Shown here one piece after another: positions 6,561-7,358 of a stretch of DNA of 24,000 nucleotides. The stretch's first letter is position 1, and every line of letters starts with the position of its first letter. Source of the DNA: Pseudomonas sp. MRSN 12121 (lineage in GTDB: Bacteria; Pseudomonadota; Gammaproteobacteria; Pseudomonadales; Pseudomonadaceae). Where the stretch lies: contig NZ_CP010892.1 in the NCBI RefSeq assembly GCF_000931465.1, positions 2,479,388 through 2,503,387 on the forward strand, read 5' to 3'. Under the pieces are notes generated by a model. The model was not told the DNA's origin and searched no databases. It saw only the letters and a list, made by a program, of their open reading frames with translations. The position numbers and the translations under genes are program-made.

Positions 6561-6621
6561 GCGGCAGCGAGGTGGGGAGTGGATGGCTGATCGACAGGGG
6601 AACGTCAGTGTCCTGAAATGC

Positions 6622-6654
6622 AAAAAGCCCGGCTGACAAGGCCGGGCTTTTTTT
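6622..6654. terminator. Bidirectional intrinsic terminator
   Basis: The structure is A5 - GCCCGGC (6627-6633) - loop TGACAAG - GCCGGGC (6641-6647) - T7 (6648-6654). It lies between the convergent stops at 6560 (+) and 6676 (-). Confidence 0.75.
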
Positions 6655-6675
6655 CGAGTACCGCGCATGGCGCGA

Positions 6676-7155
6676 TCATGCGGTGCGGCGTTCGTTCAGA
6701 CGATCGGAACCACCTTCGGCTACCCGGCGTTCGTTCAGACGATCGGAACCACCTTCGGCTACCCGGCGTTCGATCAGGCGATCGGAACCACCTTCGGCTA
6801 CACGGCGTTCGATCAGGCGATCGGAACCACCTTCGGCTACACGGCGTTCGATCAGGCGATCGGAACCACCTTCGGCTACACGGCGTTCGATCAGGCGATC
6901 GGAACCACCTTCGGCTACACGGCGTTCGATCAGGCGATTGGAGCCACCTTCGGCTACACGACGTTCGATCAGGCGATCGGAACCACCTTCGGCTACACGG
7001 CGTTCGATCAGGCGATCGGCGCCACCTTCGGCGACACGTTTTTCAATCAGGCGATCCGAACCGCCTTCGGCGACGACCGGGTAGGCCGAGGAGGCGGCGA
7101 AAGCGTTGGCGGCAAGGACCGAGAAAGCGATGCTGAGAAGAATTTGGCGTTTCAT
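6676..7155 (-). CDS. Secreted tandem-repeat protein: signal peptide plus 10 x 13-aa AEGGSDRLIERRV units
   Basis: GGAG lies 6 nt upstream of the ATG at 7155. The N-terminus MKRQILLSIAFSVLAANAFA is a classical Sec signal with AxA. It is followed by 10 in-frame 13-aa repeats and only one extra residue before the stop. A terminator lies downstream at 6622-6654. Confidence 0.75.
   Translation of the reverse strand: MKRQILLSIAFSVLAANAFAASSAYPVVAEGGSDRLIEKRVAEGGADRLIERRVAEGGSDRLIERRVAEGGSNRLIERRVAEGGSDRLIERRVAEGGSDRLIERRVAEGGSDRLIERRVAEGGSDRLIERRVAEGGSDRLNERRVAEGGSDRLNERRTA
6682..7071. repeat. 39-bp tandem repeat, 10 copies (coding)
   Basis: The plus-strand unit is about GGCGTTCGATCAGGCGATCGGAACCACCTTCGGCTACAC. 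Central copies are identical and terminal copies carry 1-4 substitutions. There are no spacers between copies. Confidence 0.95.
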
Positions 7156-7232
7156 GATGTGCTCCGGGGGTGCTGTTTGGTTGGTATGGAGCAGATGTTA
7201 CGTGGCGGATTTTTTTTGAGAATTTCATTGAG

Positions 7233-7249
7233 TCGATGGTGACCATCGA
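7233..7249. promoter_or_regulatory. Perfect 8-1-8 palindrome TCGATGGT-G-ACCATCGA (candidate operator)
   Basis: On the minus strand it reads TTGGCA-[TCGATGGTCACCATCGA]-CTCAAT. The palindrome therefore fills a 17-nt spacer between a -35-like and a weak -10-like hexamer, about 80-95 nt upstream of the repeat-protein ATG. Confidence 0.35.
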
Positions 7250-7328
7250 TGCCAATGATAGCGGCGGGGAGCCTTGGAATAGAGCCGTTGGGCGAGGGAT
7301 TCCACGGTGCCGACCGCTCGCGATCAAT

Positions 7329-7358
7329 AAAAAAGCCCGGCGCATCGGCCGGGCTTTT
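7329..7358 (-). terminator. Intrinsic terminator downstream of the DUF4349-like gene
   Basis: GCCCGGC (7335-7341) pairs with GCCGGGC (7348-7354) around the loop GCATCG. The minus strand reads hairpin+TTTTTT (A6 at 7329-7334). It lies 40 nt after the minus-strand stop at 7399. Confidence 0.65.

Follow-up and report, generated by a model that had tools for sequence, protein, structure and literature searches.

The repeat gene carried by a 24,000-nucleotide stretch of the Pseudomonas sp. MRSN 12121 genome (contig NZ_CP010892.1; hereafter the window) is, taking all observations as a whole, probably best explained as an ordinary member of the PA4623/PA4881 family of MexT-activated tandem-repeat proteins. 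To this family assignment our analysis adds a match, at the level of sequence, between the 13-residue repeat unit of the protein and the motif located at the mature N-terminus of PtrA.

Architecture of the repeat protein

The 159-residue product is composed of a 20-residue signal peptide, an eight-residue linker, ten 13-residue units arranged head-to-tail with the consensus AEGGSDRLIERRV, and a final alanine (Table 1). The organization proposed in the initial annotation (signal, eight-residue linker and ten repeats of 13 residues) was thereby reproduced in every detail, by ORF translation as well as by Tandem Repeats Finder (6686-7071, period 39, 9.9 copies, 94% matches, no indels, score 646). 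The N-terminus consists of MKRQ, the hydrophobic stretch ILLSIAFSVLAAN and AFA (altogether MKRQILLSIAFSVLAANAFA), and was judged to be a signal peptide from its n-, h- and c-regions (charged start, hydrophobic core) and its AFA↓A site in the sequence alone. On this basis, the protein is predicted to be exported via the Sec pathway to the periplasm or to the outside, in agreement with its earlier description as a secreted protein made almost wholly of repeats.

At the DNA level, units 5-7 are identical and divergence rises toward both ends of the array, with units 1 and 10 differing from the central units by 7 and 6 nt, respectively, so that the previously described contrast between identical central and divergent outer units is recovered. 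All of the amino acid changes listed at that time are likewise present in the unit table, namely S to A in unit 2, D to N in unit 4, I to N in units 9 and 10, and RRV to RRT in unit 10; unit 1 also shows an R to K exchange. Each unit is charge-balanced (E, D and E versus R, R and R), as had been pointed out. The mature protein (139 residues, ∼15.2 kDa) has a GRAVY of -0.87 and 14.4% glycine, contains 29 acidic and 30 basic residues, and lacks Cys, His, Met and Trp. With more than 6% glycine and a high hydrophilicity, it falls within the hydrophilin composition range, a definition that considers composition only and is silent on function. Codon choice in the repeats (6682-7071, - strand) is unusual for a 65% GC genome, with a GC3 of 0.53 and GGT, CGT, GAA and GTA used throughout.

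AlphaFold2 modeling, based on a 17-sequence alignment, yielded a mean pLDDT of 33.6, with values below 50 for residues 24-159; a helix was present in the signal peptide only (residues 2-22) and no secondary structure was found in residues 24-159. The mature protein is predicted by this model to be intrinsically disordered.

Table 1. Features of the repeat gene and its surroundings (positions in the window).
Feature	Position	Strand	Basis and remarks
Coding sequence, 159-aa repeat protein	6676..7155	-	ORF translation; stop codon 6676-6678; frame kept in 80/80 related loci
Sec signal peptide (predicted), residues 1-20	7096..7155	-	MKRQ, hydrophobic core, AFA↓A; conserved in orthologues; AlphaFold helix at residues 2-22
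Linker ASSAYPVV, 8 residues	7072..7095	-	ORF translation and unit table
Ten 39-bp units, each encoding AEGGSDRLIERRV	6682..7071	-	Tandem Repeats Finder, unit table, NF041599 match, predicted disorder
Shine-Dalgarno GGAG	7162..7165	-	Read from sequence, 6 nt before ATG; CCGGAGCAC kept in nearly all loci
Candidate weak sigma-70 promoter	7195..7222	-	-35 TTCTCA (7222-7217), 16-nt spacer, -10 TAACAT (7200-7195); inferred from sequence
Candidate MexT box ATCA-TTGGC-ATCGAT-GGTC-ACCAT	7236..7259	-	Ends 80 nt upstream of ATG; 14/15 specified positions of the published consensus
Two-way terminator hairpin	6621..6655	.	Stem 6626-6643 on - strand; also serves the convergently oriented DUF1615 gene
Terminator hairpin of the upstream DUF4349 gene	7331..7358	.	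Terminator scan and sequence

The repeat array is part of a coding gene of variable copy number

The repeat ORF is a genuine coding gene and is neither a minisatellite nor a VNTR. One might envision a non-coding minisatellite in which several frames are open by chance, as three + strand frames are likewise open across the array, a property which is due to the repeat itself. However, this explanation is refuted by the data and retains virtually no probability. The start codon, the Shine-Dalgarno sequence and the signal peptide are conserved in the related loci, and copy number, which ranges from 5 to 12, changes solely by whole 39-bp units among 80 loci, the lengths of the homologues rising accordingly in 13-residue steps (94, 107, 120, 133, 146, 159, 172 and 185 residues). 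Variation is concentrated at the third codon position, with a mean entropy of 0.39, 0.22 and 1.08 bits at positions 1, 2 and 3, respectively (585 aligned units), and 12 of the codon changes within the array are synonymous while 6 are nonsynonymous. Moreover, the protein matches the NF041599 profile (see below), and MexT-driven promoter activity has been published for family members (PMC2794183). Frameshifted repeats in close relatives, which the initial annotation had put forward as one sign of a non-coding VNTR, were not encountered, the frame being open in all 80 related loci (named Pseudomonas genomes). Within the unit, A1, E2, G3, G4, D6, R7, L8, R12 and V13 are 89-100% conserved, and the A-E-G-G-x-D-R-L core reaches 96-100% at most positions (585 units).

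The variation in copy number between relatives that had been anticipated is borne out by the range of 5 to 12 units among the 80 loci, a comparison made between species. The closest syntenic locus among those fetched, in P. chlororaphis PCL1601, contains nine units versus ten here, and the flanking DUF4349, DUF1615, NUDIX and LysE proteins are 84-92% identical to those of the window; the copy number has therefore changed recently. A recent expansion or homogenization of the units, also suggested previously in terms of expansion or concerted evolution, is plausible: slippage or unequal recombination would let the number of units drift, and those within one gene would be held alike.

Genomic surroundings and expression signals

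The repeat gene is surrounded by DUF1615 (a convergent lipoprotein gene), DUF4349, NUDIX and LysE genes. The DUF1615 neighbor is kept by many orthologues; other copies of the repeat gene are found elsewhere in the genome, and many genomes harbor several paralogues. As the terminator of the DUF4349 gene splits off the upstream gene (Table 1), the repeat gene is likely to be monocistronic. The promoter consensus scan found none at its thresholds; CGTAACAT and AATGAAGTTCTC of the candidate promoter are conserved in the related loci. ECF-sigma (AlgU-type) and sigma-54 promoters were also considered from the sequence, and were set aside for a poor fit of spacing and key bases. No Rfam family scored above the gathering threshold around the repeat gene. 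The 5' leader, from the candidate -10 to the start codon (7156-7194, - strand; GCTCCATACCAACCAA.AACACCCCGGAGCAC), is conserved across loci and rich in CA/AAC, and this stretch might represent an A-rich site of the Hfq/Crc type through which translation is controlled.

Relationship to the PA4623/PA4881 family

Tian et al. 2009 (PMC2794183) described PA4623 and PA4881 of P. aeruginosa as homologous, secreted tandem-repeat proteins under activation by MexT, and extended this description to homologues in P. fluorescens (Pfl01_3748) and P. putida (PP_4858). In a BLASTP comparison, the window protein matched the 129-residue P. aeruginosa protein P0154 with an E value of 2e-12 and 35% identity over 127 residues, and a chain of profile hits passing through another genus also joins the two proteins. 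The P0154 gene is located after a two-partner secretion pair and before MFS and molybdopterin oxidoreductase genes, a neighborhood which we take to be that of PA4623. A length of 129 residues has likewise been given for PA4623 (PMC2794183), and from length, species and neighbors we infer that P0154 corresponds to PA4623.

The window protein shares with the PA4623/PA4881 family its small size, a type I signal peptide, a body of tandem repeats with the core [AL]-A-E-[GNS]-G-S-[DE]-R-x-[IV]-[ED]-R, and a MexT box located ∼75-90 nt upstream of the ATG. In contrast to the P. aeruginosa members, which contain four units of ∼23 residues, it contains ten units of 13 residues, and it is devoid of a non-repeat tail. 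The repeat, which had not been recognized as a described family in the initial annotation, can thus be placed in the PA4623/PA4881 family (PMC2794183), and the protein in addition passes the NCBIfam profile NF041599.

As to the taxonomic spread of the family, for which BLASTP and HMM searches had been suggested, 419 homologues were collected, all of them from Pseudomonas where labeled. Relatives are present in 289 of the 301 sampled genomes of the genus and in 8 of the 21 genera of the taxonomic family; a single weak match was obtained among 299 other genomes across the class, nearly all of which belong to other families. Names given to the homologues in NCBI and UniRef are 'hypothetical protein' or 'phage infection protein', and the latter label found no support in sequence, context or the PHROGs search. 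The repeat protein had no hit in Pfam, weak hits alone in PHROGs (to families of unknown function) and nothing meaningful in a PDB sequence search, and a full-text literature search with peptide strings retrieved no papers.

A second family member is encoded in the same genome (G000:C1:670859-671308; L088 2387-2809, - strand). In this protein of 140 residues, the signal peptide is followed by a linker of 21 residues and by units of 14 residues, of the type LA(S/A)DGSDRTPQGQT and ending in VAEGGRDRLEEKGLV, and its gene is preceded by a MexT box with 2 mismatches located 85 nt before the ATG. In another genus, two family members of 184 and 148 residues, with units of greater length (16-22 residues, VAENGSSQSVDRLHxEMx), are found in tandem (L087 1731-3062), and a MexT-like box lies 86 nt before each ATG. 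An 84%-identical copy with the same upstream region is located on a contig labeled Janthinobacterium sp. (L043, JBAGKV010000022.1), which suggests contamination, mislabeling or a recent transfer.

A conserved MexT box precedes the repeat genes

The published MexT consensus reads ATCA-N5-GTCGAT-N4-ACYAT (PMC2794183), and the single deviation of the candidate box in the window is an A for G exchange at the first base of GTCGAT. When the best box within 200 nt was determined for each related locus, 0 mismatches were found in 32 loci, 1 in 17, 2 in 23 and 3 in 7, that is, in 79 of the 80 loci taken together, and the distance between box and ATG was always 78-91 nt; shuffled controls yielded boxes with 4 to 8 mismatches. 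Boxes likewise precede the second family member of this genome and family members in two other genera, and the upstream 110 nt are strikingly conserved across orthologues and paralogues. An nhmmer profile of this upstream region recovered two sites in the genome, both of them before repeat-protein genes. Similarly, the genome-wide MexT box scan revealed no other clear box beyond those of the two repeat genes, and none before a mexE-like gene. A perfect 17-bp palindrome (7233-7249) lies mostly inside the MexT box, of which it forms the center, and is imperfect in most relatives. An alternative role as operator for some other, dimeric regulator was considered and rejected, given its single copy in the genome, its position in the MexT box and its imperfect form in relatives.

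With regard to the regulator, a LysR gene is located divergently from a quinone-oxidoreductase (mexS-like) gene at C1:3745453-3747660. The LysR product shows 81-87% identity to a LysR protein from another genus in the family, where the gene is found between zinc-type dehydrogenase (mexS-like) and RND membrane-fusion (mexE-like) genes, an arrangement matching the mexS-mexT-mexE order of P. aeruginosa (PMC2794183). Judged by these likenesses, the genome carries a mexS-mexT-like pair; NCBIfam holds no MexT-specific profile. The pair (C1:3745453-3749630; L100 2454-6631) is directly followed by HxsB, the radical SAM maturase of a His-Xaa-Ser system (TIGR03978, 561 bits), and a mexE-like gene is not adjacent to it here, as reported for P. 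fluorescens.

Published work provides the functional background to these observations. MexT induces PA4623 74-fold and PA4881 751-fold, binds the motif, and no longer activates when the GTCGAT of the box is mutated (PMC2794183). The tandem-repeat genes Pfl01_3748 of P. fluorescens Pf0-1, which we liken to the window gene by its published description, and PP_4858 of P. putida KT2440 also carry the box and are induced by MexT in E. coli (PMC2794183). In a 2025 transcriptome, few genes depend on MexT as strongly as PA4881 and PA4623 (PMC12607905); papers of 2025 list the two solely as members of the regulon. PA4881 mutants of P. aeruginosa are unchanged in their sensitivity to peroxide (PMC3557286). 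In P. aeruginosa, electrophilic or redox stress overrides MexS, rendering MexT active, which leads to expression of MexEF-OprN and of a detoxification set that includes PA4881, and to lower OprD; MexT activity is thus counter-regulated with OprD (bioRxiv 10.1101/2025.06.09.658697). Whereas MexT dependence has been published for PA4623 and PA4881, it is predicted from the box for the window gene, and MexT control in this strain accordingly appears likely rather than established.

The repeat unit resembles the PtrA motif

The whole protein scores 88.3 bits against NF041599, the NCBIfam 'PtrA N-terminal domain', for a cut-off of 31. As the repeats alone reach 84.6 bits, this match is not due to the signal peptide; three units score 35.7 bits, and six separate stretches are aligned to profile positions 21-31. 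In PtrA proper, represented here by another genus, the motif (DGGGDITFQRM) directly follows the cleavage site (ALA↓DGGGDITFQRMQEQ) and the gene is located beside a PA2807-type cupredoxin gene (L095, L096). By its sequence, each 13-residue unit of the window protein is a copy of A-[ED]-G-G-x-D-x-x-x-x-R, the motif found just after signal cleavage in PtrA (PA2808) and in DUF2790 proteins, a link to PtrA which rests on an 11-residue motif.

PtrA and the window protein have in common (predicted) Sec export, the A↓[DE]GGxDxxFxRM motif and a stress regulon tied to OprD down-regulation, and the window protein lies above the NF041599 cut-off, as a PtrA orthologue would. However, PtrA displays one motif at the free mature N-terminus, with a short helical tail behind it (mature protein of ∼40 residues), whereas the window protein contains ten internal copies after its linker in a mature chain of 139 residues. 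Furthermore, the PtrA gene forms a transcription unit with PA2807 and queF that is controlled by CopRS/CzcRS, in contrast to the window gene, which lies next to DUF1615, DUF4349, NUDIX and LysE genes and not in a copper cluster. DUF2790 proteins (L001, and L091-L093 in another genus) similarly carry an EGGGDRTFER motif directly after the signal peptide, but combine this single motif with a folded DUF2790 domain, whereas the window protein is a chain of motifs. The single-motif genes have no MexT box upstream (5 mismatches for PtrA, 6-7 for DUF2790), so the motif extends beyond the MexT regulon. Two single-copy PtrA-motif genes, both without a MexT box, are present in this genome: one encodes a 110-residue protein in which the motif is joined to a DUF2790 domain (L001 1306-1638, - strand), and the other a 72-residue protein with the motif, beside a MerR-type metal regulator (L002 1417-1635, - strand).

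PtrA, a small periplasmic protein, is induced by copper and zinc, and its loss raises metal sensitivity (PMC10393844). A 2026 preprint links PtrA to closure of the OprD porin: the two proteins associate, and in a model PtrA sits at the periplasmic vestibule while its C-terminus takes no part in the interface (bioRxiv 10.64898/2026.08.14.744805).

Discussion

The most economical reading of the predicted disorder and of the repeated motif is that the mature protein strings an array of short linear motifs along a disordered chain. Several other functions can be considered for such a chain. As a polyprotein precursor, it would be exported and then cut at the RR/KR pairs or ahead of each AEGG, and the roughly ten peptides of 13 residues thus released would act singly. 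An arginine does occupy unit position 12 in 91% of the 585 units, a chain predicted to be disordered would be open to proteases, and cutting would recreate the free, motif-bearing N-terminus that signal peptidase generates in PtrA and the other single-motif proteins. The dibasic pair itself, however, is found at positions 11-12 ([KR][KR]) in 56% of the 585 units, even though RR-containing patterns had served as seeds for the locus search; 14 of the 80 close relatives have no dibasic pair at all, distant members read ENR, QNR, ESR or TPQGQT at their unit tails, and the ∼23-residue units of P. aeruginosa are devoid of a dibasic site. These observations weaken the dibasic processing proposed in the initial annotation, and its suggestion of an omptin-type protease fares no better, since omptin (PF01278) was not found in the complete genome while the E. 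coli control was positive. Altogether, we regard a peptide precursor as improbable.

Slightly less so, although still unlikely, is a role as a bulk protectant. The protein would then resemble a hydrophilin, disordered and periplasmic, or would be sacrificed as an arginine-rich decoy (30 basic residues), shielding the envelope from the reactive electrophiles to which MexT responds without requiring a specific partner. The composition of the protein (GRAVY -0.87, 14% glycine, no Cys, His, Met or Trp) and its predicted disorder are in keeping with this role, the MexT regulon has been read as a detoxification of electrophilic and nitrosative stress, and the GGT, CGT, GAA and GTA codons with their GC3 of 0.53 could fit high expression. 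Like hydrophilins and LEA-type repeat proteins, the window protein is glycine-rich, highly hydrophilic, repetitive and predicted to be disordered, so that the compositional part of the earlier hydrophilin/LEA proposal stands. The protectant function does not sit well with the strict conservation of the motif: there is no sequence relation to hydrophilins or LEA proteins, a strict short motif is conserved here rather than a composition, and the near-invariant A-E-G-G-x-D-R-L core, common to PtrA and DUF2790 proteins, points to a specific recognition motif. In addition, charge and arginine content vary widely in the family, as in the DGSDRTPQGQT units, and the signals associated with hydrophilins and LEA proteins are osmotic stress and desiccation, whereas that of the window gene would be, as far as known, MexT. 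Binding of Ca, Zn or Cu in the periplasm by the E/D carboxylates and the GG turn of each unit is highly improbable. The induction of PtrA by copper and zinc, the metal sensitivity that follows its loss (PMC10393844) and the motif common to PtrA and the window protein would speak for such binding, but the window protein is free of His, Cys and Met, its gene lies outside any metal cluster, its promoter has a MexT box and no CopR/CzcR context, and the PtrA preprint argues for a regulatory link to metals and not for chelation (bioRxiv 10.64898/2026.08.14.744805).

Returning to the array of linear motifs, we propose a mechanism in which the gene would be silent until the LysR regulator MexT is active. 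Electrophilic, nitrosative or redox stress would override MexS, as in P. aeruginosa, and MexT, once active, would bind the box upstream of the weak promoter, inducing the gene alongside the MexEF-OprN response. The array might then serve as a multivalent ligand of some partner in the envelope. If PtrA is a guide, this partner could be OprD-type porins, engaged at their periplasmic mouth, and permeability would fall under MexT-type stress once they are bound. This proposal is made because the unit copies the N-terminal motif of PtrA and because both regulons go together with OprD down-regulation. A role of the repeat proteins as multivalent ligands for channels of the outer membrane is a tentative suggestion, drawn by analogy, which we consider possible but not likely. 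The narrower version, in which they would form a multivalent PtrA 'plug', each unit docking on an OprD-family porin or another channel mouth and the chain closing or clustering many of them, is rather doubtful.

Members of the family, which was described in 2009, rank with the genes that MexT induces most strongly. Its placement corrects the database label 'phage infection protein', and the PtrA motif, together with the PtrA-OprD preprint and the MexT/OprD counter-regulation, yields a concrete hypothesis on MexT stress and outer-membrane permeability. If the 'plug' were to hold true, the repeat proteins would represent a fast post-translational arm of the MexT response whose strength is tuned by copy number, and they would help to explain the loss of carbapenem and basic-amino-acid permeability in MexT-active strains beyond the modest drop in oprD transcript.
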